Source of the DNA: Myxococcota bacterium
Lineage (GTDB): Bacteria; Myxococcota; Kuafuiibacteriia; Kuafuiibacteriales; Kuafuiibacteriaceae
NCBI GenBank assembly: GCA_036788295.1
Contig: DAIQNR010000003.1
Span: 74,211-138,210 of the forward strand
Reading direction: 5' to 3'
DNA: 64,000 nucleotides
A program made the position numbers and the translations under genes. Shown here piece by piece: positions 44,107 through 63,247 of this stretch (positions within the stretch are counted from its first letter, which is position 1; every line of letters starts with the position of its first letter). The notes beneath the pieces were generated by a model. That model had not been told where the DNA came from and did not search any database. It saw nothing but the letters and a program-made list of their open reading frames with translations.

Positions 44107-44293
44107 CCGCCCGCCGAGGGGAGGGTGCCGGACCGAGGTCCGCTCGGTCTGTCCGGCCACAATCATGGCCGCGGAGGTTAGCCAGAGCCGGGCGCCCTGC
44201 GTCAACCGCGAGGGAACCGAGCAATGGCTTCGAGCAACGGTTCGTTCCGCCCTTCTCGATAGATTCGGGCAGCGAGGGGCGCATCCTGCGGCC

Positions 44294-44971
44294 ATGATCA
44301 CGCTTCACCCGTCGAGCGCCCGGGGCCGCACCCGCCTGCCGTGGCTCGACAGCTTTCACAGCTTCTCGTTCGGGGATCACTACGATCCGGACCACATGGG
44401 CTTCTCGGCGCTCCGCGTCCTCAACGAGGACCGGGTGAAGGGGGGGACCGGCTTCGGGATGCACCCCCACCAGGACATGGAAATTCTCACCGTCGTCCTG
44501 TCCGGAGAGCTCGAGCACCGAGACAGCCTCGGCACCACCGCTCGCATCCGCCCTGGCGAGGTGCAGCGCATGACCGCCGGCACCGGCGTGCGGCACAGCG
44601 AGATGAACCCGGACCCGGACACGCCGGTTCACCTCCTGCAGATCTGGATTCTGCCCGAGCACCGGGGCCTCGCTCCGAGCTACGAGCAGCGGGCGTTCGG
44701 GGACGAGGGCCTCGTCCGGGTCGCAACGAGGGACGGCAGCGGCGCTACGCTGACCATTCACCAGGACGTCACGGTGCACGCGGGCCCGGTGCTTCGCCCG
44801 ACCGAGGTCCCGCTGTCCGGCCGGCGGGCGTGGGTGCAGGCGGCCGGCGGTCCGCTCACCGTGAACGGAGAGCGGCTCTGCCCCGGGGACGGCGCCGCCG
44901 TCGTCGGCGAAGAGCACCTCGAGGTCGGCGGGCAGGAGGGTAGCTTCGCTCTGGTGTTCGACCTGCCCTGA
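44294..44971 (+). CDS. Pirin-family protein
   Basis: RLPWLDSFHSFSFGDHYDPDHMGFSALRVLNEDRV…GMHPHQDMEILTVVLSGELEHRDSLG is a cupin pirin signature. The upstream 520 codons of track ORF 42725-44971 are antisense to the porin gene. Confidence 0.85.
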   Translation: MITLHPSSARGRTRLPWLDSFHSFSFGDHYDPDHMGFSALRVLNEDRVKGGTGFGMHPHQDMEILTVVLSGELEHRDSLGTTARIRPGEVQRMTAGTGVRHSEMNPDPDTPVHLLQIWILPEHRGLAPSYEQRAFGDEGLVRVATRDGSGATLTIHQDVTVHAGPVLRPTEVPLSGRRAWVQAAGGPLTVNGERLCPGDGAAVVGEEHLEVGGQEGSFALVFDLP

Positions 44972-45000
44972 CCCCAAGAACCCATCGGACCGGAGAAAAC

Positions 45001-50000: not shown

Positions 50001-50333
50001 CAGGAGCCGCGACGTGGGCGCGACCGCGGCGCCGCCCTCGCCGTCGCCCCGTGAGTCGTGAACGAGGTAGAACTCGTAGCGGGACTGCTCGGCGTACAGC
50101 TCCGCCAGCCGCAGATAGATGTCGGGGAGGTAGGGAGCGCCCCTAGACCTCGCGATCAGGGTCTCGGTGACTTCGATGGCCCGGGCGACCTTGCCGATGT
50201 CCCGGCGGAGCTTCTCCTCGAACAGCTTTCGCTCGTCCGCCGCCGAGCGGGGCCCGCCCGGGCCGGGCACCTGCGCCGCCGCGACCGACGAGCCAAGGAG
50301 CGACAGGAGGATCAGGCCTCTTCGTCGAAGCAT
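47031..50333 (-). CDS. Large secreted TPR-repeat protein (GltD/AgmU–NfsD-like size class)
   Basis: Signal peptide MLRRRGLILLSLLGSSVAAAQ, with SD GGGAGAG before the ATG at 50333. The 1100-aa product has >15 TPR-like helical pairs. The track ORF's additional 220 N-terminal codons are Arg-rich and start-overlap the upstream gene. Confidence 0.75.
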   Translation of the reverse strand: MLRRRGLILLSLLGSSVAAAQVPGPGGPRSAADERKLFEEKLRRDIGKVARAIEVTETLIARSRGAPYLPDIYLRLAELYAEQSRYEFYLVHDSRGDGEGGAAVAPTSRLLKEKAVEMYRRILSEFAKWDDNDKVRFYLAHELRELGAYEEMLATYRQLAAEHPKSPLVLDAYLVLGDYHFDQSQLDEAEVWYRKVLSAPVSPTHDLAHFKLGWVAMNKTQFPVAFRHFEAAVKSPWGPPGGGGDRRLDVKREALLDLVFVFTEVKASKEALPYFRKLAPERNLYVLALDKLGRRYMVKQDYPAAARVFRELARLSHNPSENLERTSLVYEATVKSGRFDRVDQDIRDLLDALDAYRFDPRVPKDSRQTAERDVELQARDLATKAQERAKEAKSTALGVRVAGAYRRYLESFPNGPQRQQMVQNLADTLFEAKRFLDAGDRFEQTARLLSEGEEQRAALIDACAAFRQALEVGGPTMPRFDRLWAQRGLIQNGRTFTERYPDHPKVAEVQLNIGRSYFEGGEFDRAVGVFDEFLSRYPKDPRAETVADLILDAFAQERDYVGLADKARELAGLRIGGPAFASRMQSTAKAAEERQIGEVILTASVDAPGQDAGASLRKYWEENRDSPVAERTLYTAFVQSKEARDYEQVFSIGNKFIGAYPESTYLGDVFGTLAAFTTQVGAFEQAAVYLEEFESRFPDDASARRQRARAAGLRALLGDHARAAEGFSSLFERSKDPAQRAEYGSALLASLRVSSRWSEAEPVAKALDRAGLAKERANLVLGLAEMDAGRLDAAASHFAAAVRATTKAASPEARADAAEAAFRLGETHLERFRQASALPDLERAAAAKAEALASTEAAMVEVVGLGVGIWAVAALHRVAMAYAEMAGFLAEAPVPEGLSAEDLAQYTAAVEAQVGGLEGRAEELFSTCVERALAFGVLTAETRGCLAQGPTEAVAAVRPTAAAPTGESARKELEARIARRPRDLDTLRPMVEHLLAEGEASRAKLMALQGLEVDDRDARLHNLLGAAELALGDASAAYAAYGRAASFGHPFAVANQAALLASLGATEAATRLLERDPPERLPDSAVDLHPGAAAVVGAAR

Positions 50334-51787
50334 CGGTTCTCTCCCAGAAAATCGAAACGCGAGAGCTCGTCGTTCCAGAACTCTCCCACGAAAGGATAGA
50401 TGGCGTCGGGTCCGGCCAGCGGGATGTCCTCGATGCGGCTCTGGCCCCGCCGGGCCCTGCGCTCGTCGAGCCGCCGATAGATGGCGAGCCCGACCTCGTA
50501 GTCGAGCAGGTACATTTGCTCCTCGAAGGCGACCAGCTCCTCGGCCCGAGCCCGGACCGCTTCGGTGAGCCGCGCGTCGATGATGCGGTCGGTCCTCTGG
50601 ATCGCGAGCTCGTGGATCTCCCGCAGGGCCTCGTCGAGCCCGGTCTCCCTGAAGTCCCCCCCGAACTCGTCCACCCGCTGGGCTTCGGCCTCGAGCGCGC
50701 GGCGAAACGCGAAGAGCCGATCGAGCCGGGGATCTTCCGCCCTCGCCGCCCGCCTCAAGACCGCGTCTTCCCGGAGGTCGTCTCGCCGCCGGATGTGCTC
50801 GAGCGTCGAACCGAAGTGGAGGCGAAAGCGCCGAATCTCCCGCTTCGCCGGGATGTAGTGGCACAGGCGCTGGTAGATGAGCGCCCGAAGCAGGAACTTC
50901 TCCGGGGCGACGAGATCTCGGTAGCTCGGGGCTTCGAGCGCGTAGAGCAGGCCCATCGCGGTCGGAAAGTTGGTCTGCCGGTACGCGGTCCACGCCCGCT
51001 CGAGCAGCAGCTGCCCTTCGGCGGCGGTCAGCTCGGGGACCTCGACCGCGCGGTACATCGCGTCGGCCGCGGGGTATTGCTTCTTTTCGTAGAGGACGCG
51101 GGCGAGCGCGAGCCGGGCTTGGTTTCGGGTCTCGGTCGGCGCCGCCGGGTGGGCGAGCGCGGCCCGAAAGCCCCGGACCGCTTCGGCTTCCTTCCCTCGC
51201 CCGAGGTCGTCGACCGCGGCCGCGTAGGCGGCCTGCGCCGCGTGCGGGCTCTTCCTGGGGATCGCGGCAAACAACCGATCCGCCCAGGTCCGACGGCCGT
51301 CGCGAAGGTCGGCGAGACCTTGAAAAAAGCGCACGAACCCAGCGACGTCGGGCGGCAGGTACCCAAAATCGCCGTCCACGAGCAGCCGAAGGTCGAGCAG
51401 CGACTCGTCGTGCGGGCCCTGCATCAGGCGCTCGATCTCGACGAGCGCTTCGGGGAGGATCTCGGGCTGCCTACCTACGAACGCGACCTCGAACAGCTGC
51501 TCGGCCCCCGCTTGGGTGAATCCGAGCCTGAAGAGCGAGACCCCGAGAAAGTAGCGAGCCCAGGTCCGGTTCTCGGCGGTGTCGGGGTTGGTAGCGACAT
51601 AATCGTACATTCGGGCCGCGGCCCGGCGGTGGTCGTCGCCATAGAAGGCCCCGAGGCCGTCCCGAAAGACATCCGGCGGGGCGGCGCGGCGCCGCGACGG
51701 AGCGCTGACCGCGGTCGATTCGGTCTTTTCGGCCGCCTCCTCGGCCGGAGCGAAGACGAGCACGGCCAAAACGGCAAGAGCGGTCAT
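50312..51787 (-). CDS. Secreted TPR-like protein (GltC/NfsC-like size class)
   Basis: Signal peptide MTALAVLAVLVFAPAEEAA, then helical-repeat content (…AAYAAAVDDLGRGKEAEAVRGFRAALAHP…). Its 3' end overlaps the downstream TPR gene start by 22 nt. Confidence 0.65.
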   Translation of the reverse strand: MTALAVLAVLVFAPAEEAAEKTESTAVSAPSRRRAAPPDVFRDGLGAFYGDDHRRAAARMYDYVATNPDTAENRTWARYFLGVSLFRLGFTQAGAEQLFEVAFVGRQPEILPEALVEIERLMQGPHDESLLDLRLLVDGDFGYLPPDVAGFVRFFQGLADLRDGRRTWADRLFAAIPRKSPHAAQAAYAAAVDDLGRGKEAEAVRGFRAALAHPAAPTETRNQARLALARVLYEKKQYPAADAMYRAVEVPELTAAEGQLLLERAWTAYRQTNFPTAMGLLYALEAPSYRDLVAPEKFLLRALIYQRLCHYIPAKREIRRFRLHFGSTLEHIRRRDDLREDAVLRRAARAEDPRLDRLFAFRRALEAEAQRVDEFGGDFRETGLDEALREIHELAIQRTDRIIDARLTEAVRARAEELVAFEEQMYLLDYEVGLAIYRRLDERRARRGQSRIEDIPLAGPDAIYPFVGEFWNDELSRFDFLGENRCFDEEA

Positions 51788-52509
51788 CGGGGCTCCTCCT
51801 CATCCACGTCGGGGCTGGGCGCCGTCCCCGGGAACAGGGCGTCGAGGACCAAATCCGGGTCCTCGGCCGGGGTCGTGCCCGCCGCTCGCTCGCCGCGGGA
51901 CCCGAAATGAAACCCGAGGGATAGGTTGATCTGCAGCAAGGTCTCGAGCGGGAGCAGCTCATCGAAGGCGACCGTGCCCCGAAAGTCGAGCCTGGCCGAC
52001 ACGCGAGAGCCCAGGTGGAGGCGGACTCCAGGGCCTCCCGATACCTGGTAGCGAAAGCCATCGCTGAAGTTCGCCACCCCGAACCCGAGGTGAAGGTGGG
52101 TGGACAGGTTCAGCACCGCCCGGTCGAACAGGGCTACCTTCCCGTAGAGGGGCGTGAACAGGAGTCCCGTGCTCGCCAAGTATTCGACCTGCGGCTCGAC
52201 GGTGGGCGCGACCCCGAACCGGGTCTCGAGCGACCCGGTGAGGCCGCTGTCGAGCGCCGCGGCGTAGCGAAAGTCCACCAGCTCGAGCGCGACGATCTCC
52301 GATAGATGCAAGGTGTAGCTGCCGCCGAGCGACAGGCCCGTGTACAGCGCGCTCGCCGGCAGCACCCCAACCCCCACGTCGAGCTCGTGGATGAGGCGGT
52401 GGGGTCGGTCCTCCCTGGCGACCACGCGCCCGCCCATTCGCCGCTCCTGCTCGCTCGCGAGCGCCTCGGTGGCGAAGAAGAAGACAAGCAGCGCGATGCT
52501 GGGCCTCAT
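51784..52509 (-). CDS. Putative outer-membrane β-barrel protein (GltA/B–NfsA/B-like), paralog of 52506-53195
   Basis: Signal peptide MRPSIALLVFFFATEALA, then alternating hydrophobic β-strand pattern (…YTGLSLGGSYTLHLS…, …LQINLSLGFHFGS). Its start overlaps the stop of the upstream paralog, and its stop overlaps the downstream start (ATGA). The track ORF extension to 52947 is Arg-rich. Confidence 0.55.
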   Translation of the reverse strand: MRPSIALLVFFFATEALASEQERRMGGRVVAREDRPHRLIHELDVGVGVLPASALYTGLSLGGSYTLHLSEIVALELVDFRYAAALDSGLTGSLETRFGVAPTVEPQVEYLASTGLLFTPLYGKVALFDRAVLNLSTHLHLGFGVANFSDGFRYQVSGGPGVRLHLGSRVSARLDFRGTVAFDELLPLETLLQINLSLGFHFGSRGERAAGTTPAEDPDLVLDALFPGTAPSPDVDEEEPR

Positions 52510-53195
52510 GGGACGTCTCCGAACCCAAACGACGCCGATAAGGTGAACAGACCGACCGTCTCGACGCCCTCCGGCTCCCCTTCCCGGAGGGCGCGGCGCA
52601 GGGCGGCGAAGAGCCGCCCGTCGAAGCGAGCGCTCAGCCACGACGACGCGTAGATGCGAAAGCCGAGCCCACCGCCGAGCGCCGGCCGCAAGTCCTCGAG
52701 CATCTCGTCGAAGGTGGGGCGGTCGCCGAAGAAGAGCCCGGCGTAGGCGCCGAGGACCACCGCGCCGTGGACGGTGTCTCGGTTGAACAGCACCTGCTTG
52801 CCGTACATGGGGCTCAGCTCGAGCCCGGTGGACAACAGCAGCCGGGGAGCAGAGAACTCGTCCGGCCGCCGGGCGAAGGTGCCGACCAGCTCCTCGTACA
52901 AGGAGGTCGGGTCGAGCAGGGCCCCGGTGACTTCGAGCACCTCCCACGCGAGGTGGGGGCTGAGGTGGTAGGTGTAGGCGAGACCGGCGGTGAAGCCCTT
53001 TTGGAACGGATCGAGCGGCATCGTGCCCACGGCGAGCCGCAGCTCGTGCCTCGTCCCATACTTTCGGGCTTGCACCGCCCCGGAGACCGCCGGCTCGGCG
53101 GCCGGGGCCGAGCCTGCGACCAGGCAGAGCAAGGCGGCGATGGACCCCGTTTTCAGGGGGACAGGTGGACGTCGCGGGACCGATTCGCGCGGCAC
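52506..53195 (-). CDS. Putative outer-membrane β-barrel protein (GltA/B–NfsA/B-like), paralog of 51784-52509
   Basis: Signal peptide …KTGSIAALLCLVAGSAPAAEPA (GTG start at 53195). The same strand pattern and similar length to the neighbour (…LAYTYHLSPHLAWEVLEVTGA…, …FTLSASFGFGDVP). Confidence 0.55.
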   Translation of the reverse strand: MPRESVPRRPPVPLKTGSIAALLCLVAGSAPAAEPAVSGAVQARKYGTRHELRLAVGTMPLDPFQKGFTAGLAYTYHLSPHLAWEVLEVTGALLDPTSLYEELVGTFARRPDEFSAPRLLLSTGLELSPMYGKQVLFNRDTVHGAVVLGAYAGLFFGDRPTFDEMLEDLRPALGGGLGFRIYASSWLSARFDGRLFAALRRALREGEPEGVETVGLFTLSASFGFGDVP

Positions 53196-53209
53196 GGCGG
53201 GACCCTACG

Positions 53210-55567
53210 TCAGTACGAGGTCGGGGCGAAGTTCCAGGGATAAGAGATCACCACATCTCCACCCTTTGGGGACGGGAAGCGCCAGTTCTTCAGCTTGTCC
53301 ATCACGCACCGGGCCACCGCCGCGTTTTGGAGCGTCGAGTGCTTCTGCTTGATGTCCCCCGCCCGTCCGTTTTGGCGGATGGTCCACTCGATGACGAGCT
53401 TGCCCTGGAGGCCAGGGCTCGACATGAGCGCCCGCTCGAAGCAGCTGACGACCTCGTTCGCGTGTTGGTCGATCACCTTCGCCACCTCTTCCCGAGATAT
53501 GTTCCCCTGCGCGGTCACCCGGCTCGGCACCGCCCGGTCCACCTTGCCCCGCACGGCGCCCCCGCTCGTCTTTCCGATCCGCGCGAACCCTGGCCCATCG
53601 CGCAGCAGGTCGGCGCTCCCGCGGGTGAGCGGCTTGCCTCCGCCCCCACCCCCGAGCCTCACGTCCGACGAAGGGGCCTTGCCGATGAGCGCGCCCACCC
53701 GAAAGCTCGATCCGCCGGGGGTCGAGACCGCGTCGAGGCTCGAGGCGGCGCTGACCATGCTCGGCGCGCCGGGGGCGGCGTTGGCCAGCTTGCCGAGCGC
53801 GCCGAGCACCCCCGCCTTCTTCACCTCGGGGGCGGGCGCTCCTTTGGGCGCGGCGGCCGGGGGAGCAGGGCTCTTTCGTTCGATTCGGGCCGGCTTCTTC
53901 TCCGCTTTGGCCACGGGAGGCGGTGCCTTGGCCGGCTCGGGCGCGGGCGGCTCTGGCTCCGGCTCCGGCTCCGGCTCCGGCAGGCTCACTTCCACCGGGC
54001 GGACCTCGTCGACCGCGGCCTCGGCCCAAATCTCCCTCGGGGCTCCGGAGAAGCTGGTGGCCGGGGTGGTGAGGCCGAGTACGAGGCCGAGCGCCAAGTG
54101 GACGAGCACCGCCGAGCCGAGCGCGCGCGGCACCGGTCCGTCGAGCCGCTTTCCGGCCGGAGGCGGAACGGGGACCGGCGGAGGGCTCACGAAGCGCAGG
54201 TGGCACCCCAGGTCGCCGATGCGGAGGTCGAGCGACTGGCCTTGCCGCAAGCGGACCGCGTACGTGTCACCCTTCGTGCTGACCGCGTGGCCCGGGATCT
54301 TCAGGTTGTCGAGGGGGACCTTTCGCCCCTCGTCGAGCAGCACGCCGGCCGCGTCGCTCGGGAAGCGGACCTCGGCGAGCCCCGGAGCGAGGAGCCGAGC
54401 CACCCGCAGGGGGCGACCGATCCCCAGGAGGTGGGCCGAGCGGCGAGGCTTTTCGAGCAGATCGATCCGGCGCAGCTCGTCCTTCCTCGACGCGATGACC
54501 TCGAGCGCGTGGGGCCGCTCCGCCGGAGGCGCCGAGCGGATGAGCTCGAGCAGCGAAAAGCCGGGCCGCTCGAGCGCCTCCGCCTCGTCCTCGTCGAGGC
54601 CTTCTTCCTCCTCGGCCGCCAGCTGAGGGTCGAGTTCATGCGCGGGCTCCCGTTTTTCCTGCCGGCTCTCTGCCGGTGCGGGCTCGGAGAACGGGTCCGA
54701 GATGGGGCGCCGCCGCAAGGGCGCCTGCTCCGTTCGCTCGGAGGCGAACGCCTCCGAGAACGGCATCGCCGCGTACGGATCGGGCGCCAAGTCCCCGAGC
54801 GCGATCGCCACCGTCGCCGGTTCCTCGTCGAGCGGCTCGTCCGGCGTCCCGGCGGCGCCAAAAGCGGAGGCCAGGGCCTCGTCCACCGAGCCGTAGGCCT
54901 CGGGAAGCGCGAACCCATCGTCAGCGGGGGTCGCGAGGTCCGCTTGCTCCTCGAGCACGTCCTCGCCGATCACCGCGATCCGGTCGGACACCGCCTCGTC
55001 GAGCCCATCGAAGATGTCGTCCGACCAGGCCCGCTCGCGAACGACATCGGTGGGGATGCGCCGCTCGCCCGGGGTCCGCGGAGCGGAGTCCATCAGCAGG
55101 TCCGCGGTCGGCGCCGGTCGCGCCGGCCGAACCACGGGGCCCGGTTCGGGTGCGCTCTGCCGCTTCTTGCCCGGGCCCGCCGAGGGGAGCGCGGCGGGGA
55201 CAGCCGACGGGCTCGGGACGGCGGAGGGAATGGGGAGCGCCGAGGGTCGGGCCCCCACCGGCTTCGGCTTCACCAGCTTGAGCTTCAGCACATGGCCGCC
55301 GACGCCGACTTCGTCTCGGGGGCCGATGAAGCCATGCTGAACCCGGGCCCCGTTGACGCGGACGCCTCCCGCGGTGCCGAGGTCCACGACCCGAACCTGG
55401 TCGTCCTCCCTGGATAGGATCGCGTGCGCGTCGTCTACGGCGCCGTCGTCGAGGCGAAGGTCGGCCTCCTCGCCGCTGCCCACGACGAGCTCCGGCTCGG
55501 TGAAGACCTCCGAGCCGACATACGCGCCGTCGCGGAAGACGAAAACGTGGAGAACCGGGACCGCCAC
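53210..55567 (-). CDS. FHA-domain protein of the AgmX/PglI (GltJ/GltG/NfsG) type: FHA – second FHA-like – TM – Pro/Glu-rich periplasmic linker – AgmX/PglI C-terminal domain
   Basis: N-terminal FHA (VFVFRDGAYVGSEVFTEPELVVGSGEEADLRLDDGAVDDAHAILSREDDQVRVVDLGTAGGVRVNG). A TM helix AVLVHLALGLVLGL is followed by EPEPEPEPEPP, KAPPPVAKAEKKP. The conserved C-terminal block GNISREEVAKVIDQHANEVVSCFERAL…GKLVIEWTIRQNGRAGDIKQKHSTLQNAAVARCVMDKLKNWRFP is characteristic of myxobacterial gliding/sporulation AgmX/PglI proteins. Confidence 0.8.
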   Translation of the reverse strand: MAVPVLHVFVFRDGAYVGSEVFTEPELVVGSGEEADLRLDDGAVDDAHAILSREDDQVRVVDLGTAGGVRVNGARVQHGFIGPRDEVGVGGHVLKLKLVKPKPVGARPSALPIPSAVPSPSAVPAALPSAGPGKKRQSAPEPGPVVRPARPAPTADLLMDSAPRTPGERRIPTDVVRERAWSDDIFDGLDEAVSDRIAVIGEDVLEEQADLATPADDGFALPEAYGSVDEALASAFGAAGTPDEPLDEEPATVAIALGDLAPDPYAAMPFSEAFASERTEQAPLRRRPISDPFSEPAPAESRQEKREPAHELDPQLAAEEEEGLDEDEAEALERPGFSLLELIRSAPPAERPHALEVIASRKDELRRIDLLEKPRRSAHLLGIGRPLRVARLLAPGLAEVRFPSDAAGVLLDEGRKVPLDNLKIPGHAVSTKGDTYAVRLRQGQSLDLRIGDLGCHLRFVSPPPVPVPPPAGKRLDGPVPRALGSAVLVHLALGLVLGLTTPATSFSGAPREIWAEAAVDEVRPVEVSLPEPEPEPEPEPPAPEPAKAPPPVAKAEKKPARIERKSPAPPAAAPKGAPAPEVKKAGVLGALGKLANAAPGAPSMVSAASSLDAVSTPGGSSFRVGALIGKAPSSDVRLGGGGGGKPLTRGSADLLRDGPGFARIGKTSGGAVRGKVDRAVPSRVTAQGNISREEVAKVIDQHANEVVSCFERALMSSPGLQGKLVIEWTIRQNGRAGDIKQKHSTLQNAAVARCVMDKLKNWRFPSPKGGDVVISYPWNFAPTSY
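53946..53982 (-). repeat. (GGCTCC)n hexanucleotide microsatellite encoding the (Glu-Pro)n linker of the AgmX-like protein
   Basis: ggctctggctccggctccggctccggctccgg on the + strand. It translates on the minus strand to EPEPEPEPEPP in the periplasmic linker. Confidence 0.8.
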
Positions 55568-55575
55568 TTGGGACC

Positions 55576-55947
55576 TCAGGGCTCGAACACGGTGCGCAAG
55601 GTGCGCTCCCGAAAGCTCTTGCGCCGCTCCACCATGCTGCTGAGGCCGGCCGCCTTTCGGGCGAAGAGGACCACCGCGCCGGTCTGGTTGCGCTGCCCTT
55701 GGACGAGCCGGTCGTCGAAGTCGATCCGGGTCGGTCCGCGCCCGGTGGGCTCGACCGGGACTGGCGCCGGCGCCTCAGCAGCGGGCGGCGGCGGAGGAGT
55801 GGGTCGCTTCGCCGGGGCCCGGCGCCGCGGCGGCGTCTTGCCGATCGCGGGCGAGAGGCCGAGCCCGGGGTCGAACGCGCCGAGCACCAGCCCGAAGGCG
55901 AGCACCCCGGCCAGTCGAGCGCCGACGCGCCCCCATCCGTTCGCCAT
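55576..55947 (-). CDS. Small membrane-anchored Pro-rich protein (TonB-like topology), first gene of the operon
   Basis: MANGWGRVGARLAGVLAFGLVLGAF (TM) – PPRRRAPAKRPTPPPPPAAEAPAPVPVEP – C-terminal ~45 aa. Its stop lies 9 nt upstream of the FHA gene start. Confidence 0.35.
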   Translation of the reverse strand: MANGWGRVGARLAGVLAFGLVLGAFDPGLGLSPAIGKTPPRRRAPAKRPTPPPPPAAEAPAPVPVEPTGRGPTRIDFDDRLVQGQRNQTGAVVLFARKAAGLSSMVERRKSFRERTLRTVFEP

Positions 55948-56205
55948 GGAACTGGCCTAGCGAGCCGCGCTGGCAAAGTCAAACCGATGACCGGCTAAGT
56001 CTTGGAAATGACCAGGACTCTGCTTCAATTTCGCCCGGGGTGCCCCGCCCCCCAGGAGGGGGTGCAGGCCCCGGGGCGCTCGCCCCCGGGCCCCTCGCGA
56101 ACCCAACCGCGGTCGTTTTGGGGGCCCGAGCCCCCGATGGGATGGGGAAGAGGGGACGATCGATGAACCGTTGGAGTTGGCAAGGTTCTAGCATTGTGAC
56201 CTTGC
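55948..56205. promoter_or_regulatory. Divergent intergenic region between the Glt/Nfs-like operon (−) and the TSP3/vWA lipoprotein operon (+)
   Basis: A 258-bp non-coding gap separates two back-to-back operon starts. Candidate −35/−10-like elements are present (ttgacc… / tggaaatgacc…), but no confident σ70 or σ54 match can be asserted by eye. Confidence 0.3.
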
Positions 56206-57561
56206 ATGAAACGACTGCCCCTGCGTTCGCCTCCCCTTGCCTTGACCGGTATCGCTGCAGCTCTGCTCTTTGCCGCGGCCCCGGCTCAGGCCCAAACCGG
56301 CTCCGGCGACGACGGAGGCGAGTGCTCGGGAGGGCTGTGCGGCACCCCCCTTCAATCCGGGGGCGGCGGCTGCGGCTGCGGCGGCGGGTCGATTCTCATC
56401 AACAACACCGACCGCGGCGACACCTACCAGTATGGGGACGACTACGACTCCGACGGGTTCGAAGACGACTTCGACAACTGCCCGTTCGTCTACAACCCGG
56501 AGCAGCTCGACGGAGACGGGGACGGGGTGGGCGACGCCTGTGACCTGTGCCCCGTCGTCGCCGACCCCCTCCAGATCGACACCGACAGCGACGGCCTCGG
56601 GGACGCGTGCGACCCCGACATGGACGGCGATGGCGTCCTGAACGCGGTGGACGTCTGCCCGCTGGTCGCCGACCCGCTGCAGCTCGACACCGACCTCGAC
56701 GGGCTCGGCAACGCCTGCGATCCGGATGACGACGGGGACGGCGTCCTCGACGGGCGAGACAACTGCCCGCTGTTCTACAACCCGGATCAGGTGATCCCGG
56801 CCGACGCCGAGGGGTTGTGCTACCTCGACTCCGACCGGGACGGCATCGACGACAGCGTCGACAACTGCTTCTCCGCGTTCAACCCCGACCAGGCCGACAT
56901 CGACGGGGACGGGATCGGCGACGCCTGCGACGGGGACATGGACGGCGACGGTCTCACGAACCTCCGCGACAACTGCCCACGGGTCGCAAATCCCGACCAA
57001 CTCGACACCGACCGGGATGGGATCGGCGACGCGTGCGACGACCGCCTGTGCTTCGTGGTGTGGCAGGCTGGCGCCGAGGACCTGCGGGACCCGAACCATT
57101 GCCTCGACCCCGAGCTGACCTTCACCGTGCTGTCGGTGCCCCAGGACATCGCCGAGGTGGGACAGAGCCGTCGCCTCCACATCTTCTCGAACCGAGAGAA
57201 CCAGCCGATGCGCTACGTATGGACCGTCGTCGGTCGGCCCGCCGGTTCGAGCGCCGAAGTGCAGCACCCCCGGGGCTCCGTGAACCAGTCCGACTACTTC
57301 GAATACCGCTACCAGCGGGACCGGGTGGCGAGCTTCACCCCGGACGTGCCCGGGGACTACCAGCTGCAGCTGTCGGCGGAGCTCGTGTTCGACGACCCGA
57401 TGTTCCCGGAGGTGACGTCGAGCCGGACCACCTTCAACCTCACCGCCACCGGTGAGCCGCAAAGCGGCTGCGCGGCTGCCGGCGGTCCGGTCCGGCCCCC
57501 GCTCGAGCTGCTGCTCGCCGCCGCGGGCGCCGTCCTGCTCCGGCGCCGCCGCCGGGCCTGA
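56206..57561 (+). CDS. Secreted thrombospondin-type-3 (TSP3) Ca-binding repeat protein with MYXO-CTERM tail
   Basis: Signal peptide [29 protein letters not shown], then ≥8 DxDxDGxxDxCD repeats ([33 protein letters not shown]…, [12 protein letters not shown]…). The C-terminus is [32 protein letters not shown]. Confidence 0.75.
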
Positions 57562-57666
57562 ACCAGGGCGCGGGCTTCGCGCGCCCCGATGAATCGAGGC
57601 TTGGGGCCGGTGAAGACCGGTGACCCGGGCCTTCTTTTCGGGGACCATGGTCCCCGGTCCCAAGCC

Positions 57667-59472
57667 ATGCGAAACCTCATCTTCGCCCTGCTGCTTCTCG
57701 CCGGCTGCACCCCCGAGACCCTTCGAGCCATCGACCAGGTGGAGGTTCGCGCGGTGGACGACAAGCTCGTCATCGAGGGCGAGGTGTGCACCGAGCCTCC
57801 GGAGCCGACCGACTTCCCGGTGAAGATCCTGTTCGTCATCGACGGGTCGGGGAGCATGCAGTTCGTCGATATCCCGTCCCGCCGGGCGCTCGCGGTGGAG
57901 GAGGTGATGCTCCGGCTCCGGGCGAACCCGAGCGTGTCGTTCGCGGTCGTCCGGTTCAACGAGTCGAGCGCGGTGCTCACCCGCCCGGGGACCGACATCA
58001 CCACGAACGAGCCGTTTTCGACCGACGTGTCCGGCGCATTCACCCGGGACCCGGCGGTGCTGGGCCAAGCGGTGCAGGAGCTGCGGGTGGCCGACTCCGT
58101 CACCGACTACCAGGGGGCCCTGTCCACCGCGTTTCTCATCCTCTCCCAAGACATGCTGGGCTCGCCCCGGGAGGAGCTCGCCCGGACGAAGTACGTGGTG
58201 GTGTTCTTGTCCGACGGGGACCCGTTTCCGAGTTGCTGCAGCCGCCGCAGCGAGGAGGTCGGGCTCTGCAACCGGGACACGAATCTGTTCTTCTGCGAGA
58301 ACCCAGACGCAATCCGCCAAAACCCTACCCAGCTCCCTTTTCACGAGGCGGGCGCCGACTACAACCAGCCGTACCAAATCTATGGCGCGGTCCGGGACAT
58401 CATGGCCCTCGAGGAGACGTTCGGGGCGGGCGAGATCCGGCTCCACACCGCGTTTCTGTTCGACCCCAACCTCGTCGAATCGCTCGACCCGGTCACCAAC
58501 TGCTACACGATCGCGGGCGTCAACTTCGTCTGCAGGGACGAGGCGATCGAGCTGCTCGGCAACATCGCCCGGATCGGGCAGGGCATCTTTCGCGACTTCT
58601 CCGCCGCCGAAGAGATCGACTTTCTCGGCTTCGACCTCTCGAGCGTTCGACGGGAGCGGGGGCTTCGAAACCTCTTCGTCGCCCACCGCTCGGCGACGCT
58701 CGACGACCGGTTCGCTCCGGAGCCGGACAGCGACGGCGACGGCCTGCCCGACCGGGTAGAGTTCGAGATCGGCTCGTCACGGACCGACCCCGACACCGAC
58801 GGCGACGGCTTCTCCGACCTGCTCGAGTTCCGCTTCACCCGGGGCGGGCTCGACCCGCTGGTGCCAAACCCTGGCTGCACGGGGGAAGACGACCGCCGTG
58901 ACGTGGACGGGGACGGCCTGCTCGCCTGCGAGGAGCGGTTCCTCGGCACCTCGGATCGGTTCTTCGACAGCGACGCCGACGGCCTGCCCGACGGGCTCGA
59001 GCTGCGGGTCCGGCTCGACCCCGCGGCCCACGACGCGCTGCTCGACGCCGACCTCGACGGGGTCCGAAACCGAGACGAGATCCGGGCCGGCACCGCCGTT
59101 CACCGGGACGAGGGCCAGGCCCGATCCAGCGTCGCCTACCGCAGCCGGACCGAAGACCGCGGCGTCGGCCCAAACGGTGGCCGCTGCTATGGGTTCGAGG
59201 TCAAGAACCTGCGCCTGACCACTCCGCTCGCCCGTCCCGGGGTCACGGGCAGCTTCGGTCGAAACGAGTTCCTCGTGTACGTCTCCGAAGCGTCCGAGGG
59301 CGACCCCGACGACCTCGCCCGGTTCAAGATCGGCTGCGCCTGCGCCCGGTACGTCGCGCCCGACTTCAAGGACCCGCCGCTCGGTCGGGTGGAGCTTTCG
59401 CCCGAAGACTTCGTTCGGCCGGAGGAGTTCGACCCCGCCATCCACTGCCGGGGCTGCGGAGACGCCCAGTGA
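57667..59472 (+). CDS. von Willebrand factor A (vWA) domain lipoprotein with C-terminal TSP3 repeats, paralog 1
   Basis: MRNLIFALLLLAGCTPE has a lipobox. vWA MIDAS context: KILFVIDGSGSM, DYQGAL, VVVFLSDGDP. It is Cys-rich, then carries DSDGDGLPD, DTDGDGFSD, DVDGDGLLACEE, DSDADGLPD repeats. The track ORF start at 57589 precedes the signal peptide. Confidence 0.75.
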   Translation: MRNLIFALLLLAGCTPETLRAIDQVEVRAVDDKLVIEGEVCTEPPEPTDFPVKILFVIDGSGSMQFVDIPSRRALAVEEVMLRLRANPSVSFAVVRFNESSAVLTRPGTDITTNEPFSTDVSGAFTRDPAVLGQAVQELRVADSVTDYQGALSTAFLILSQDMLGSPREELARTKYVVVFLSDGDPFPSCCSRRSEEVGLCNRDTNLFFCENPDAIRQNPTQLPFHEAGADYNQPYQIYGAVRDIMALEETFGAGEIRLHTAFLFDPNLVESLDPVTNCYTIAGVNFVCRDEAIELLGNIARIGQGIFRDFSAAEEIDFLGFDLSSVRRERGLRNLFVAHRSATLDDRFAPEPDSDGDGLPDRVEFEIGSSRTDPDTDGDGFSDLLEFRFTRGGLDPLVPNPGCTGEDDRRDVDGDGLLACEERFLGTSDRFFDSDADGLPDGLELRVRLDPAAHDALLDADLDGVRNRDEIRAGTAVHRDEGQARSSVAYRSRTEDRGVGPNGGRCYGFEVKNLRLTTPLARPGVTGSFGRNEFLVYVSEASEGDPDDLARFKIGCACARYVAPDFKDPPLGRVELSPEDFVRPEEFDPAIHCRGCGDAQ

Positions 59473-61304
59473 ACCAGAACCGGGGCCGGTGGGCGGCGCT
59501 CGTCGCGGGCGCGCTCTCCGCTGGGGGGTGCACCGATTTTGGGCTCTTCGTCGCCGCCACCGACGGGCCGGGGCCGTTCGACGACACGCTCGCCATCGAG
59601 ACCCGGTTTTGCACCGAGGATCCGGCGACGCTCGAGTTCCCGGTCAAGATCCTCTTCGTGGTCGATACTTCGCAGTCGATGAACGTCACCGATCCCACCG
59701 GAGGACGGCTCTCGGCGGTGCAGGAGGTCGTGGACAACTTCCTAGACGACCCGGGGACGAGCTTCGCGATCATCCAGTTCTCGGGGCAGACCAACGTGCT
59801 CACCCAGGGGCCGGACGGGGAGGACGGCTTCACCCGCGACCGGGAGGCGCTCGAGACCGCCATCGTCCGGCTCGGGGTGGCCGAGCAGCCGACGGACTAC
59901 GAGGGGGCGATCGCGAACGTGAACCGGGTCCTGAGCCGGGACATGGCCAACGCGAGCGAGCAGGCGCTGTCGCGCTCCCGGTACATCGTGGTCTTCTTGT
60001 CCGACGGGCTGCCCGACCCGGTTCGGCCGCCGACCAACACCCGCAGCTCCATCCTCCGGAGGGTCCGTGAGATCTCGGACCTGCAGCGGATCTATCGGCC
60101 AAGGGAGATTCGATTTCACACCGCGCTGCTGCTCGGGGCCCTGGGGACCGGATTTCGATGCGCCGACGCCGGTCTCGAGGGGGGCGTGGGGCGGTGCTCG
60201 GCCTTGAACACCGCTCCGCTGTGCGAAGCGGATCGCCGCTGCACGTGGATCTCGGTGGAGCAGGAGGCGACGAGCTTGCTCGAGGGCATGGCCGCGGCTG
60301 GCTCGGGCACGTTTCGGAGCTTCCCGAACGGCGAGTCGATCAACTTCCTTCGCATCGACTTCACGTCGATTCGCCGCATCTTCGCTCTCAAGAGCCTGGT
60401 GGTGAGCAACTTGAACGCCCGTCCTCGGTTCGAGTTTCCGCTCGGCATCGGAGCTGGTTTCGGGCGCGCGGTGGTGGACAGCGACGGCGACGGCCTGTCC
60501 GACGAGCGCGAGCTCGAGCTCGGGACATCGCTGACGTCCACCGACACCGACGACGATGGGTTTTCGGACCTGCTCGAGGTCCGCCTGTCCGCCTCCGGCT
60601 TCGACCCGCTCGACCCGAGCGACGCCGACTGCACGCCGGGGCTCGACCGCCTCGACACCGACGGAGACGGCCTGCTCGACTGCGAGGAGCGGTTCTTCGG
60701 CACGAATCGGAACCGCCCCGACGGCGACGCCGACGGCTTGCCCGACGTCGTCGAGCTGATGGGCGGCTCGAACCCGGTCGCCAACGACCTGCTCGCCGAC
60801 AACGACTTCGACGGGGCCCGAAACGGGGCCGAGGTGAGGGCCCACTCCGACCCGAATCGGCCCGACTCGGCCGAGCGGTCCCAGATCAGCTACCGGTACA
60901 GCATCGTCCGCCGCAGCCCCGAAGACCTCGCCCCGACCGATGCTCGGCAAGCGGTCCTGCGGGCGGGGCGGGAGTGCTACGAGGCCCGCGTCGAGAACGT
61001 GACCCTGGCCCCGACTCTGGATGGGAAGAACCGGATCATGATCTATGTGACGCAGGCCCCGTTCGACGACCCGGAGGACTTCGGTGAGCTTCGGGTGGCC
61101 TGCGTCGAGCCGTCCTTCTTTCCCCCGGACACCAGGCTGCCGCCGCTGTCCACGGTGTTCGTGCCCGAGTCCGCGTACGTGCGCCCGGAGGCGTTTCGGC
61201 GGTCGCTTCACTGCACCACCGGCGAGGTCCCGCCCCCCCGGGACGAGCGCTGCGTGGGGCCGATCGAATCTCTCGACCGGTCCTGCTTCGAGGAGGGCCC
61301 ATGA
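59469..61304 (+). CDS. vWA domain lipoprotein with C-terminal TSP3 repeats, paralog 2
   Basis: The GTG start overlaps the upstream stop (GTGA). The lipobox is LSAGGCTD. vWA motifs: KILFVVDTSQSM, DYEGAI, IVVFLSDGLP. TSP3 repeats: DSDGDGLSD, DTDDDGFSD, DTDGDGLLDCEE, DGDADGLPD. Confidence 0.75.
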   Translation: MNQNRGRWAALVAGALSAGGCTDFGLFVAATDGPGPFDDTLAIETRFCTEDPATLEFPVKILFVVDTSQSMNVTDPTGGRLSAVQEVVDNFLDDPGTSFAIIQFSGQTNVLTQGPDGEDGFTRDREALETAIVRLGVAEQPTDYEGAIANVNRVLSRDMANASEQALSRSRYIVVFLSDGLPDPVRPPTNTRSSILRRVREISDLQRIYRPREIRFHTALLLGALGTGFRCADAGLEGGVGRCSALNTAPLCEADRRCTWISVEQEATSLLEGMAAAGSGTFRSFPNGESINFLRIDFTSIRRIFALKSLVVSNLNARPRFEFPLGIGAGFGRAVVDSDGDGLSDERELELGTSLTSTDTDDDGFSDLLEVRLSASGFDPLDPSDADCTPGLDRLDTDGDGLLDCEERFFGTNRNRPDGDADGLPDVVELMGGSNPVANDLLADNDFDGARNGAEVRAHSDPNRPDSAERSQISYRYSIVRRSPEDLAPTDARQAVLRAGRECYEARVENVTLAPTLDGKNRIMIYVTQAPFDDPEDFGELRVACVEPSFFPPDTRLPPLSTVFVPESAYVRPEAFRRSLHCTTGEVPPPRDERCVGPIESLDRSCFEEGP

Positions 61305-63247
61305 CCAAAGAGCCTACGTTTGTGGCCAGACCCACCGAGAACCGGCGCCGAAGGAGCGCGACCCGCCGTTCGGGTTTTTGGCTGCTCGCCGCCGGGCTCG
61401 TCGCCTGCGGGGAAGATGCCGCCCCGACGCCGGACGCCGGGTCGGTGGACGGAGGAGATGGCCTCGGGGACACGTGCAGCTACGACACCCCGTGCCCGCT
61501 CGTTCCCGGCGAGCGGTTGGTGGGCACGATCGGCGAGGTGGGGGACGAGGACCCCTACGACTTCGTGGTCCCCGCGGCCGGCCGGGTCATCGAGATCGTG
61601 GTCGCAAACGACGCGAACTTCTCTCCGGTGCAGCTCGAAGCGGTGCTGTTCGAGCCGGGCGGGCAGGCGGTGGTGAACAGCCGGGGCCCGGCCCGGGGCC
61701 GGCAGCGGGTTGTGATCCAGACGGTGGCGACGGCGGCCGGCACCTGGCGGCTCGTGGTTCGGGACGTCGGGTCGGACTCCGCCGACCGCCGAAACCCATA
61801 CTTCGTCGACCTCCGCCTGCTCGACGACCCGGACGCAAACGAGCCGAACGACACCCCCGAGACGGCGACCCCGATCGCCCTTGGCGTCCCGGTGAGCGGG
61901 ACCATCGGCTCGCAGGGCGACCTCGACTGGTTCTCGGTGGAGCTTCGGCCCGGCACCTTGCTCGAGGTTCGGGCTTCCGCTGCCGAGGGGCTGGTTCGCC
62001 ACCGCTGGTCGCTTTTTGGCCCCGACGCGACCACCCGGCTCGTGCAGTCGACCGAGCCTCCGGCCGGGGCCCCGTGGCCGGTGGAGGTGCGGGCGCTCCG
62101 GGCCCAGGGCGGCCGCTACTTTGTGCTCGTAGAAGACGATCCGGAGGGCGGTCTGTCCGCCGATCCGGCCCAGCCGTACCGGCTCGAGCTCTTCGAGCGG
62201 CCGGAGCCGGACGGAAACGAGGGCCTCGAGGGCAACGACGTCCCCGAGCGGGCGACGCCGCTCGTCGCCGGCACGCCGATCCAGGGCTTCATCGCATCGG
62301 TGGCGGACGTGGACTGGTACGCGATCGAGGTGCCGGCCGCGTCGCCGGCGTCCCCGCGCTTGCTCACCGTGGACGTCGCCTATCCGGGGGCCTCGCCGGT
62401 GCAGCTGCAGATGACCGTGTTCGAGCCCGACGCGGAGACGCTCGTGTGCCAGCGCCGGGACGGCGACGCGTGCCTCGGGCGGCGCTTCGTCCGGGACGGC
62501 AGCGAGGGGCCGTCCCGCTTGTCCACGTCCCACGTCGTGGACGCGCCGGGGCGCTACCTCGTGTCGGTGCGCGACCTGCAGGACGACGACTTCGACGGCG
62601 AGCTCGCGTACACCGTGACCGTTCGGCTCCCCGACGAGCCGGACCGGCTCGAGACCTACGGGCCCGACAGCCGCTCGGAGGCGACCCTCGTGCTCCCGGT
62701 GACGGCGACCACCGGCGCCACCATCGAGTTCGACTGGGTCGAGGGCCATCTTTCCTACGCCGGGGACACCGATTGGTACCGATTCGACATCCCGGGCCCG
62801 GTGGACGCCTCGGAGGGGCAAAACGGGGACTGGCTGGTGGCGGTGGAGCTGCGCATGCCGAGCCCCACCCCGGTGGAGCTGAACGCGTTCTTCTTTGGGC
62901 CTGAGGGCAGCGACCGGGACCGGTACCGGGGCGTCGGCCAGCGGTGCCGCACCCCGAGACCAGAGGACCCCGACTTCTGCCAGTGGCCGGACGAGGAGAA
63001 CGGTCTCGACATCAACTTCTCGACCACGCTCGGCAGCGAGAGCGGGGAGTGCTTCGTGGTGTTTCGCGAGGTCACCGGCGCCGGCCCCCACTATTGGCGC
63101 ATGAGCGACCTCGACCGCGACGACCACGATCTGGGCCCGACCGGCCGCTACCGGTTGCGCATGATCATCACCGCCGGATGCCCGGAAGACAGCGCATGCA
63201 TGGGCCGATTCCGACAGGGCGGCATGGACCTGTGCGGCCGACCGTGA
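61301..63247 (+). CDS. Lipoprotein with four tandem pre-peptidase C-terminal (PPC)-like domains
   Basis: The ATG overlaps the upstream stop (ATGA). The lipobox is LVACGE. Four ~120-aa repeats each carry a NEPNDTPETATPI…G.I…GDLDWF/Y motif (ANEPNDTPETATPIALGVPVSGTIGSQGDLDWFSVE; GNEGLEGNDVPERATPLVAGTPIQGFIASVADVDWYAIE; …HLSYAGDTDWYRFD). Confidence 0.7.
   Translation: MTKEPTFVARPTENRRRRSATRRSGFWLLAAGLVACGEDAAPTPDAGSVDGGDGLGDTCSYDTPCPLVPGERLVGTIGEVGDEDPYDFVVPAAGRVIEIVVANDANFSPVQLEAVLFEPGGQAVVNSRGPARGRQRVVIQTVATAAGTWRLVVRDVGSDSADRRNPYFVDLRLLDDPDANEPNDTPETATPIALGVPVSGTIGSQGDLDWFSVELRPGTLLEVRASAAEGLVRHRWSLFGPDATTRLVQSTEPPAGAPWPVEVRALRAQGGRYFVLVEDDPEGGLSADPAQPYRLELFERPEPDGNEGLEGNDVPERATPLVAGTPIQGFIASVADVDWYAIEVPAASPASPRLLTVDVAYPGASPVQLQMTVFEPDAETLVCQRRDGDACLGRRFVRDGSEGPSRLSTSHVVDAPGRYLVSVRDLQDDDFDGELAYTVTVRLPDEPDRLETYGPDSRSEATLVLPVTATTGATIEFDWVEGHLSYAGDTDWYRFDIPGPVDASEGQNGDWLVAVELRMPSPTPVELNAFFFGPEGSDRDRYRGVGQRCRTPRPEDPDFCQWPDEENGLDINFSTTLGSESGECFVVFREVTGAGPHYWRMSDLDRDDHDLGPTGRYRLRMIITAGCPEDSACMGRFRQGGMDLCGRP

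Follow-up and report, generated by a model that had tools for sequence, protein, structure and literature searches.

A four-gene Mts-type surface-protein locus that probably works with a divergent Glt-like envelope complex in a Myxococcota genome

We analyzed a 64,000-nucleotide stretch of a Myxococcota genome (the window) and found four co-directional genes predicted to encode an Mts-type surface module, which probably works with a G5-type Glt-like complex encoded by the divergently transcribed operon opposite. Paralogs of the gliding machine serve different functions in Myxococcus xanthus: Glt drives gliding and Nfs assembles the spore coat. The proposed machine-plus-adhesin unit at this locus is well supported by synteny. 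A first-pass annotation of the sequence had suggested that the surface proteins form a unit with the neighboring Glt-like machine, and this is strongly supported by linkage recovered from both search directions and by single operons in which motor genes, a Glt core and TSP3, vWA and PPC genes occur together. The features of the locus are as follows.

56206..57561, + strand: P1, MtsC-type protein, 451 aa (NF047638, TIGR03901, TSP_3)
57589..59472, + strand: P2, MtsD-like predicted lipoprotein, 627 aa (Pfam VWA_2 and TSP3_bac, NF047639)
59469..61304, + strand: P3, second vWA/TSP3 predicted lipoprotein, paralog of P2, 611 aa (Pfam VWA_2 and TSP3_bac)
61301..63247, + strand: P4, predicted lipoprotein (lipobox LVAC) with four predicted PPC/collagen-binding-type domains, 648 aa (motifs, AF2 model)
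55948..56205, no strand: divergent intergenic region common to both operons, 258 bp, from the minus-strand ATG at 55947 to the P1 ATG at 56206
55576..55947, - strand: U1, small GltF-like protein, first gene of its operon, 123 aa (weak CglF match; adjoins the GltG-like gene in all related loci)
53210..55567, - strand: U2, GltG-like protein, FHA domain at the N-terminus and AgmX/PglI (TonB-C-like) domain at the C-terminus, 785 aa (Pfam FHA, Yop-YscD_cpl)
52506..53195, - strand: U3, outer-membrane beta-barrel, GltA/B-like, 229 aa (TIGR04565 OMP_myx_plus, 57.8 bits, cut-off 60)
51784..52509, - strand: U4, second outer-membrane beta-barrel, GltA/B-like, 241 aa in the public gene call (TIGR04565, 63.5 bits)
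50312..51787, - strand: U5, GltC-like TPR protein, 491 aa (NF033756 GltC, 75.5 bits, cut-off of 450 not reached)
47031..50333, - strand: U6, GltD-like TPR protein with a signal peptide, about 1100 aa, last gene of the operon (several TPR families; start ATG at 50333)

The P1-P4 open reading frames span 56206-63247 in the ORF list of the window, and all four have the high third-position GC that real genes should show. Reading the sequence at the junctions revealed a GTGA overlap between P2 and P3 (59469-59472), where the GTG start of P3 lies over the P2 stop, and an ATGA overlap between P3 and P4 (61301-61304). The layout first annotated, with four genes, these two overlaps and a divergent upstream region of 258 bp, is borne out by the ORF coordinates and the sequence. 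No sigma-70-type consensus promoter was found in this intergenic region, and a promoter/terminator consensus scan did not exceed chance level. Calcium-binding motifs and cysteines are abundant in all four proteins.

We assign P1 as an MtsC ortholog because it passes the cut-off of the NCBI equivalog model NF047638, named 'cell-cell cohesion MYXO-CTERM protein' (542.6 bits, cut-off 350; model positions 7-427 of 428). It also matched Pfam TSP_3 (E 4e-45) and the MYXO-CTERM model TIGR03901 (20.2 bits, cut-off 20). Besides a signal peptide, P1 contains a stretch rich in Gly and Cys, roughly 10 DxDxDG calcium-binding motifs of the TSP3 type and a beta-rich region. Its MYXO-CTERM sorting tag combines the invariant Cys422 with a hydrophobic helix and an RRRRR tail. 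Alignment revealed that Cys422 and the Arg tail are kept in 15 homologs. The earlier description of the locus as a lipoprotein operon therefore needs to be narrowed to P2, P3 and P4, which carry lipoboxes, as P1 has an ordinary signal peptide and a C-terminal MYXO-CTERM tag.

P2 and P3 are tandem paralogs, as first proposed, with 35% identity over their full length (E 9e-97). The probable P2 start is the ATG at 57667, which gives a 601-aa protein with the lipobox LLLAGC and matches the public gene call; the lipobox Cys is conserved among homologs. In P2, a vWA domain with a metal-ion-dependent adhesion site (MIDAS) and a Cys-rich insert precedes four TSP3-type motifs (380-494), and P3 has five such motifs at 337-452. 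These repeats had been described as ending both proteins, but they are central, and in each protein a conserved domain of some 130-160 aa follows at the C-terminus. Both proteins are best regarded as MtsD-like and not as MtsD equivalogs. MtsD was the best named NCBIfam match of both vWA domains, and P2 aligned end to end with the MtsD model, NF047639, a 'cell-cell cohesion' family (261.8 bits, model positions 12-638 of 651). P3 scored 162.3 bits, and neither protein reached the cut-off of 800. Function is therefore not simply transferable from MtsD.

The full set of MIDAS residues is present in both vWA domains: DGSGS 85-89, the T in TDY and the D in LSDG in P2, and DTSQS 66-70, T142 and D179 in P3. 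When 14 divergent vWA homologs were aligned, the MIDAS positions D46, S48, S50, T122 and D159 were invariant. A profile of the homologs aligned the DxSxS, T and D of the site with those of complement C2a (E 4e-8) and also with other vWA domains of solved structure. This profile was needed for the C2a alignment, as the P3 sequence by itself gave no match to solved structures. The concern raised in the first-pass annotation, that the vWA domains might lack MIDAS residues, is thus removed. No CglB family appeared among the NCBIfam matches of either vWA domain at E <=10, a weak negative as the library may include no CglB model. Two other vWA systems were considered and rejected: a Bat-type vWA/TPR aerotolerance system gave only weak BatB matches, and a phospho-binding pair of FHA and vWA domains conflicts with the predicted locations, cytoplasmic for the FHA domain but lipoproteins for the vWA proteins.

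P4 scored 23.6 bits against Pfam PPC (PF04151), under the gathering threshold of 25.9, and many of its close homologs carry a precomputed PF04151 match. Self-BLAST detected no internal repeats in P4; the domains are visible only through conserved motifs and the structural model. The AF2 model (pLDDT 78.6) has four beta domains, with beta-sandwiches at approximately 60-175, 190-300, 318-443 and 470-625 and a Cys-rich C-terminus. Each domain has one DxDW[YF] motif that is invariant in the homolog alignment (D82/D84, D207/D209, D336/D338, D489/D491). In the PDB, the model best matched PPC domains that bind collagen in a calcium-dependent manner: ColG s3a-s3b (5iku) at E 9e-11, and the collagen-binding domain of ColH (3jqw) with a TMt of 0.72 at 23% identity. 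The four PPC-type domains first annotated in P4 are thus supported by the predicted structure and by the invariant motifs, despite the sub-threshold Pfam score.

The operon opposite encodes candidate envelope proteins related to the gliding machinery. U2 scored above the cut-off of NF033768 (104.7 bits, cut-off 40), and its 135 bits against the GltG model NF033760 did not reach the cut-off of 650. Both this score and that of U5 against GltC are far under the equivalog cut-offs, and we classify U2 and U5, from these comparisons, as paralogs of gliding GltG and GltC and not as gliding genes themselves. No homologs of GltH, GltI, GltJ or GltK were seen, and no ExbB or ExbD genes occur within the 64-kb window.

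The window region corresponds, in gene order, sizes and position, to a known neighborhood of M. xanthus. G5 is an M. xanthus Glt paralog cluster, MXAN_1327-1331, in which MXAN_1327 is a GltD homolog of 1089 aa and MXAN_1331 is a GltF homolog (Luciano et al. 2011, PMC3169522). The gene order of G5 is that of U6 to U1, with MXAN_1331 as the positional counterpart of U1, a match of position and composition only. The proteins here and in G5 measure 1100 and 1089 aa (GltD'), 491 and 538 aa (GltC'), 785 and 749 aa (FHA-GltG') and 123 and 162 aa (GltF'). The window has two barrel genes (241 and 229 aa), whereas one is listed for G5 (246 aa). Both operons neighbor mtsC, which in M. xanthus is MXAN_1334, three genes away from G5; MXAN_1332 and MXAN_1333 lie between the two, whereas the window has only the 258 bp. 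The M. xanthus mts locus also has mtsC directly followed by an MtsD-like gene, as in P1-P2, and the order of vWA, TSP3 repeats and C-terminal domain in MtsD is that of P2. MtsC and MtsD are the known proteins of the mts locus; the window has two vWA paralogs and a four-PPC lipoprotein, a possible difference from M. xanthus. With P1 as MtsC, P2 and P3 as MtsD-like proteins, a G5-like operon opposite and MXAN_1327-1331 near mtsC, the arrangement is more familiar than the first-pass annotation had supposed.

We surveyed 80 MtsC loci kept from a genome scan, among which M. xanthus was not included. Of the 56 loci for which 7 kb or more of downstream sequence was available, 43 had the full four-gene set (mtsC, at least two vWA genes and a PPC gene). 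Two or more Glt-like genes were found within 10 kb in 26/80 loci, with divergent layouts as in the window (13), co-directional layouts (12) or a mixed layout (1). No Glt-like gene occurred within 10 kb in 13 of the 24 four-gene loci with full flanks. The set can therefore occur without close Glt/Nfs-like neighbors, which had been named beforehand as evidence against a shared unit, but in three contigs a Glt-like operon lies approximately 12-20 kb further away.

The reciprocal search, with U5 (GltC') as the query, recovered MtsC-like and/or vWA/PPC genes at all 11 of the G5-type metagenome loci that had long flanking sequence on each side. Of the loci whose GltC' match fell below 100 bits, three had a full 10-kb flank on one or both sides, and none of these carried Mts-like genes. 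The predicted co-occurrence of the four-gene set and Glt-like genes was thus recovered in both search directions. Gene order is constant within each arrangement, and the linkage has withstood at least three rearrangements and is still seen at approximately 30% identity. In other lineages, an MtsC paralog lies directly upstream of a gene series that begins ExbB-ExbD-ExbD-GltF'-GltG'. One locus (L142) is a tight 12-gene operon comprising ExbB, ExbD, ExbD, GltF', GltG', OMP, GltC' and GltD', then an unknown gene and the genes for a TSP3 protein, a lipoprotein with vWA and TSP3 domains and another with multiple PPC domains. P3 is 33% identical to the L142 vWA protein over its full length (E 8e-78), and the P3 type is the single vWA paralog present in the 12-gene operons. 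We did not find the strength of this Mts-Glt linkage described in the searchable literature.

From the gene structure, domains, motif conservation and linkage, we infer the localization, ligand binding, physical coupling and energization of the module as follows. By analogy with other MYXO-CTERM proteins, P1 would, after export, be anchored through its tag, and P2 and P3 would be outer-membrane lipoproteins displaying vWA domains with an intact MIDAS. The most likely role of the module is to bind other cells or matrix with the help of divalent cations, the cell-cell cohesion role after which the Myxococcus Mts proteins were named. Its most likely partner is the G5-type complex, in which GltG' would lie in the inner membrane and extend its FHA domain into the cytoplasm, GltC' and GltD' would be periplasmic TPR proteins, and two outer-membrane barrels and GltF' would complete the assembly. 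On the cell surface, this complex would keep the adhesins in place, present them or move them, much as CglB and CglD are served by GltA/B/K in gliding. The energy would come from an ExbB/ExbD-type motor encoded elsewhere in the genome, outside the window.

The Agl-Glt gliding system offers a close parallel, as it also combines a Glt-type envelope complex with Cys-rich outer-membrane vWA/MIDAS lipoproteins. CglB, a vWA protein, is retained by GltA/B/K. CglD combines a vWA domain with COMP/TSP3 calcium-binding repeats, as in P2 and P3, and its association with the Glt-CglB apparatus depends on Ca2+. A vWA/TSP3 lipoprotein working with Glt is therefore less novel than the first annotation implied. 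The domain order differs, as TSP3/COMP repeats come first and vWA last in CglD and the reverse holds for P2 and P3. An ExbB/ExbD motor resembling AglRQS is encoded in the same operon in loci related to the window. Relative to Agl-Glt, the extra partners in the window are MtsC with its MYXO-CTERM tag and the four-PPC protein. The Agl-Nfs (G3) spore-coat machinery is likewise a paralogous Glt-like cluster re-used for a non-gliding function. As described, however, it has a polysaccharide cargo and lacks vWA/TSP3/PPC surface proteins, unlike the window.

Alternatively, the Mts-like proteins could form a self-sufficient adhesion or matrix module exported by type II and Lol systems, with the Glt-like operon being separate and nearby through shared ancestry or co-regulation. 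In favor of this explanation, about half of the full-flank four-gene loci lack close Glt-like genes, and the type II secretion system is the reported route of MYXO-CTERM proteins to the surface. Gliding and twitching were also at wild-type level in a mutant with a polar insertion in MXAN_1327, the gltD homolog of G5, which argues against obligate dependence, although MXAN_1327 would be the last gene of its operon. However, the linkage has survived repeated rearrangement and sequence divergence, overlapping-gene operons unite both gene sets, and MtsC paralogs lie directly ahead of motor genes. We consider a self-sufficient module unlikely. The MXAN_1327 mutant had normal motility, whereas MtsC is reported to be involved in (non-A) motility; this contrast, the 13 loci without a near Glt-like gene, the lack of ExbB/ExbD genes in the window and the low MtsD scores of P2 and P3 count against the proposed unit.

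It is also conceivable, though we regard it as quite improbable, that the vWA/TSP3/PPC proteins bind and organize a polysaccharide or matrix polymer moved by the Glt-like machine, as Agl-Nfs handles spore-coat polysaccharide. Myxococcus cohesion and S-motility depend on exopolysaccharide, and the PPC-type domains of ColG and ColH bind a polymer, collagen. The Nfs paralog is reported to transport a glycan (PMC3858216). However, no polysaccharide synthesis or export genes lie beside the locus in the window or in the 12-gene operon, and the intact MIDAS sites favor a protein or acidic ligand, with a glycan ligand less likely. Adjacency by chance is very unlikely because of the reciprocal linkage (11/11 fully informative loci compared with 0/3 weak-match loci) and is at odds with the constant gene order, even though Myxococcota commonly carry vWA and TSP3 domains and several genomes have two to four MtsC paralogs.

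If Mts-type proteins do work with a G5-type complex, the linkage, which extends across many uncultured Myxococcota-type genomes, gives a concrete assignment: G5 would be the machine for Mts adhesins. This would fill a role for G5, which, like G4, has been without known function since 2011. It also suggests that Glt-type machines were paired with vWA/calcium-binding surface proteins earlier and more generally than in gliding, with a bearing on the evolution of multicellular cohesion and surface motility in this group. More tentatively, TSP3, vWA/TSP3 and multi-PPC proteins may have been obligatory surface partners of G5-type Agl/Glt-like cores from the start. Handling of adhesins for cohesion between cells or with matrix, by these motor-driven envelope machines, would then have preceded gliding, CglB/CglD-Glt would be a later derivative, and G5 would operate the Mts cohesion proteins.

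The mts genes were reportedly tied to cell-cell cohesion by Zhang et al. in 2007 (J Bacteriol 189:7937), and we know of no mechanism for this cohesion that followed. Literature searches with MXAN_1330-1337 and MXAN_1327-1331 returned no link between G5 and mts. A protein search seeded with Vulgatibacter MtsC matched only MAGs and Vulgatibacter and did not return M. xanthus. One publication mislabels MXAN_1327 as a Tad pilus gene.

P1, the MtsC-type protein, heads a plus-strand operon of four surface-protein genes. Open reading frames are present throughout at the positions where the first-pass annotation had placed these genes, and all four carry the third-position GC excess that marks real genes in this genome (GC of the window ~70%):

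56206-57561 (+), P1, MtsC-type protein
57589-59472 (+), P2, vWA/TSP3 lipoprotein
59469-61304 (+), P3, vWA/TSP3 lipoprotein
61301-63247 (+), P4, four-PPC lipoprotein

Direct reading of the sequence confirmed two further features of that annotation: the start/stop overlaps (GTGA and ATGA), and the 258 bp that separate P1 from the divergent minus-strand gene. In the public gene call, P2 begins at an internal ATG (57667), which yields a clean lipoprotein signal, LLLAGC. On a near-identical public contig (CAZDDJ010000003.1, assembly GCA_964504175.1), the locus lies near the contig end, and no related gene was found between P4 and that end.

Pfam detected TSP_3 repeats in P1, and the protein scored 542.6 bits (cut-off 350) against NCBIfam NF047638, 'cell-cell cohesion MYXO-CTERM protein MtsC'. 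P1 is thus MtsC by NCBIfam assignment. In place of the lipobox once attributed to it, P1 carries an ordinary signal peptide, with a MYXO-CTERM tag at the C-terminus. The evidence that associates MtsC and MtsD with cohesion and non-A motility consists of their family names and one citing sentence.

P2 and P3 both contain VWA_2 and TSP3_bac domains (Pfam) and are paralogs, as first proposed, with 35% identity across their full length (E 9e-97). They had also been said to end in TSP3 repeats, but the repeats lie mid-protein, ahead of a conserved C-terminal domain. Both matched NF047639, 'cell-cell cohesion protein MtsD' (P2, 262 bits; P3, 162 bits), and the P2 alignment covers this model end to end. 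Since the scores are far under the cut-off of 800, we consider P2 and P3 MtsD-like rather than equivalogs. The DxSxS motif is present in both vWA domains, and an alignment of 14 divergent homologs from related loci revealed that the MIDAS residues D, S, S, T and D are all invariant. When the profile of this alignment was compared with vWA domains of solved structure, the best match was complement C2a (E 4e-8), whose corresponding residues align with DxSxS, T and D in the profile. The MIDAS, on which the first-pass annotation had staked its adhesin proposal, is therefore intact. Even at a permissive threshold, both vWA domains matched MtsD best among named families, and neither matched a CglB family in NCBIfam, a library that may have no CglB model.

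The Pfam match of P4 to PPC is sub-threshold. Nevertheless, the four PPC domains first proposed are supported by four invariant DxDW[YF] motifs and by four beta-sandwich domains in an AlphaFold model built from 20 sequences (pLDDT 78.6). The top PDB matches of this model were calcium-dependent collagen-binding domains of the clostridial collagenases ColG and ColH. The 16 closest homologs of P4 share 42-60% identity with it, and remoter matches are PPC-domain proteins.

Across the shared intergenic region lies the Glt-like operon, whose proteins (primed names denote Glt-like paralogs) all score far under the equivalog cut-offs of true gliding proteins. Counted from that region, its genes are:

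first (-), small GltF-like protein
second (-), GltG-like protein, 785 aa, with an FHA domain and an AgmX/PglI C-terminal domain
third and fourth (-), two small outer-membrane barrels
fifth (-), GltC-like TPR protein (U5)
sixth (-), GltD-like TPR protein, ~1100 aa

Matched by order and size, this operon has a gene order identical to that of the M. xanthus Glt paralog cluster G5, with similar sizes. G5 comprises MXAN_1327 (1089 aa, GltD homolog), MXAN_1328 (538 aa, GltC homolog), MXAN_1329 (246 aa, GltB homolog), MXAN_1330 (749 aa, FHA domain, GltG homolog) and MXAN_1331 (162 aa, GltF homolog) (Luciano et al. 2011, PMC3169522). MtsC is given as MXAN_1334, with Zhang et al. 2007 cited as the source; therefore mtsC lies three genes from G5 in M. 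xanthus, and the window holds the counterpart neighbourhood. The arrangement was first considered not commonly described, but the locus is a relative of the named mts genes and the G5 cluster of M. xanthus. We found no published link between G5 and the mts genes in the searchable literature. Relative to the public contig that carries the P4 match (L081), coordinates left of ~55567 are shifted by 6 nt (window side ~53200-55567) and GltG' has 787 aa there versus 785 aa in the window, which suggests a small indel in this gene between near-identical assemblies.

An MtsC alignment was used to scan genomes, one per species. The 80 loci returned come almost entirely from MAGs of Myxococcota type, and they were compared with all window proteins by tblastn. 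Downstream sequence of 7 kb or more was available for 56 of the mtsC loci; mtsC is directly followed by two or more vWA/TSP3 genes in 44 of these, and a PPC gene is also present in 43 of the 44. The four-gene set is a conserved module, because 43/56 loci carry all of it. At least two Glt-like components occur within 10 kb of mtsC in 26/80 loci, so the co-occurrence anticipated in the first-pass annotation is found beyond this genome. They are upstream and divergent in 13, as in the window, downstream and co-directional in 12, and mixed in one. Against this linkage, 13 of the 24 four-gene loci with full flanks lack any Glt-like gene within 10 kb; the set thus does occur without such close neighbours, in part contrary to the proposed association. 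A different lineage has a second MtsC paralog ahead of a block of ExbB, two ExbD, GltF', GltG', barrels, GltC' and GltD'. On three contigs the four-gene set lies ~12-20 kb upstream of such a block.

The MtsC loci vary in other genes. Two close relatives of the window locus have a tandem second MtsC paralog, located after mtsC and before the first vWA gene (L001:11507-12925, L004:11377-12894), and several assemblies have 2-4 MtsC-like loci (e.g., JAUVBB: L025, L044, L053, L065). In many lineages the PPC gene is followed by a third vWA/TSP3 paralog (L018, L023, L025, L033, L035, L073; L024, L032, L041-L043, L045, L071, L074), without counterpart in the window; it has ~900 aa in L037 (278-2983) and is shorter in some loci. 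At L037:6985-9682, a cytochrome b gene and a multihaem cytochrome c gene separate the block of the third vWA gene from the second mtsC paralog. Three more conserved genes of no Pfam family (~448, 157 and 805 aa) accompany the cluster in other lineages (L037:2592-6871, L012:6902-9714) and also occur upstream of mtsC (L021, L024, L032, L038, L041-L043, L045, L047, L062, L071). The 157-aa gene is often immediately upstream of mtsC, and the order in L012 is 805-aa gene, 157-aa gene, mtsC. None of the three has a homolog in the window. They might correspond to MXAN_1332 and 1333, the two genes parting G5 from mtsC in M. xanthus.

For the reciprocal scan, metagenome contigs were searched with an alignment of GltC' homologs, and loci with at least 180 bits to U5 were defined as G5-type. 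All 11 G5-type loci with long flanks on both sides contain MtsC-like and/or vWA/PPC genes. Six with one long flank gave no Mts-like match; five of these have no DNA on the expected side, and in the sixth (L089) the arrangement, hence the expected side, cannot be told. Of the three loci below 100 bits to U5 that have a full 10-kb flank on one side or both, none had Mts-like genes. In a distant group (~30% identity, 43-51% GC), all genes run in one direction; this result is not circular, because the group was absent from the seed alignment. Locus L142 has twelve tightly packed or overlapping open reading frames:

ExbB, ExbD, ExbD
GltF', FHA-GltG', outer-membrane barrel, GltC', GltD'
446-aa protein of no named kind
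TSP3 protein like the N-terminal half of MtsC (215 bits)
vWA/TSP3 lipoprotein, 33% identity to P3 across its full length
multi-PPC lipoprotein, 755 aa

That vWA/TSP3 lipoproteins work with a Glt machine is already known. CglB, a vWA lipoprotein of gliding, stays on the cell only with GltA, GltB and GltK and forms complexes with outer-membrane Glt proteins; CglD, a lipoprotein with vWA and COMP/TSP3 repeats, associates with the Glt-CglB apparatus in a calcium-dependent manner. Because of this analogy and the conserved linkage, we interpret the G5-type complex as most likely handling Mts-type adhesins, a reading beyond domain content and synteny: it would retain, expose or move them, powered by an ExbB/ExbD motor, for which the M2 cluster around MXAN_3004 is a candidate in M. 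xanthus. The surface proteins, which lipid anchors or the MYXO-CTERM tag are predicted to hold at the outer membrane, would bind in a divalent-cation-dependent way through MIDAS, TSP3 and PPC.

The main evidence against obligate dependence is a polar insertion in MXAN_1327 that left gliding and twitching unchanged (Luciano et al. 2011, PMC3169522). This would be the last gene of the operon, and only motility, not cohesion, was scored in the mutant. A credible alternative is that the adhesion module is independent and simply stays close to the Glt-like genes; a polymer-handling unit of the Nfs kind is less likely. Chance adjacency is effectively excluded by the difference between G5-type loci (11/11 with Mts-like genes) and the loci under 100 bits (0/3).

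As far as the searchable literature shows, two findings are undescribed: the linkage of an Mts-type module (TSP3 protein, vWA/TSP3 lipoprotein, multi-PPC lipoprotein) to a G5-type core across a wide range of uncultured lineages, and the union of both with the motor in a single operon in some lineages. The function of G4 and G5 was stated as unknown (Luciano et al. 2011, PMC3169522); the Mts-G5 linkage would offer a putative one for G5, a reading likewise not described in the searchable literature.

The Glt-like operon is followed immediately, on its own strand, by genes for an RPE65-family carotenoid oxygenase (45537-46967 (-), E 1e-119) and a phosphate-selective porin O/P domain protein (42605-44977 (-)); neither was seen linked to the locus in other genomes. 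The window also encodes a 1348-aa protein with an RNB (RNase II/R) domain and a C-terminal endonuclease/exonuclease/phosphatase domain (11071-15117 (+)), a 720-aa protein with a lactate racemase N-terminal (Lar_N) domain (30806-32968 (+)) and a DUF3141 protein with a very strong match (37658-39922 (-), 797 bits). A calpain-family cysteine protease domain (Peptidase_C2, E 2e-25; 35520-37211 (+)) adjoins a divergent Hsp70-like ATPase (33708-35216 (-)).
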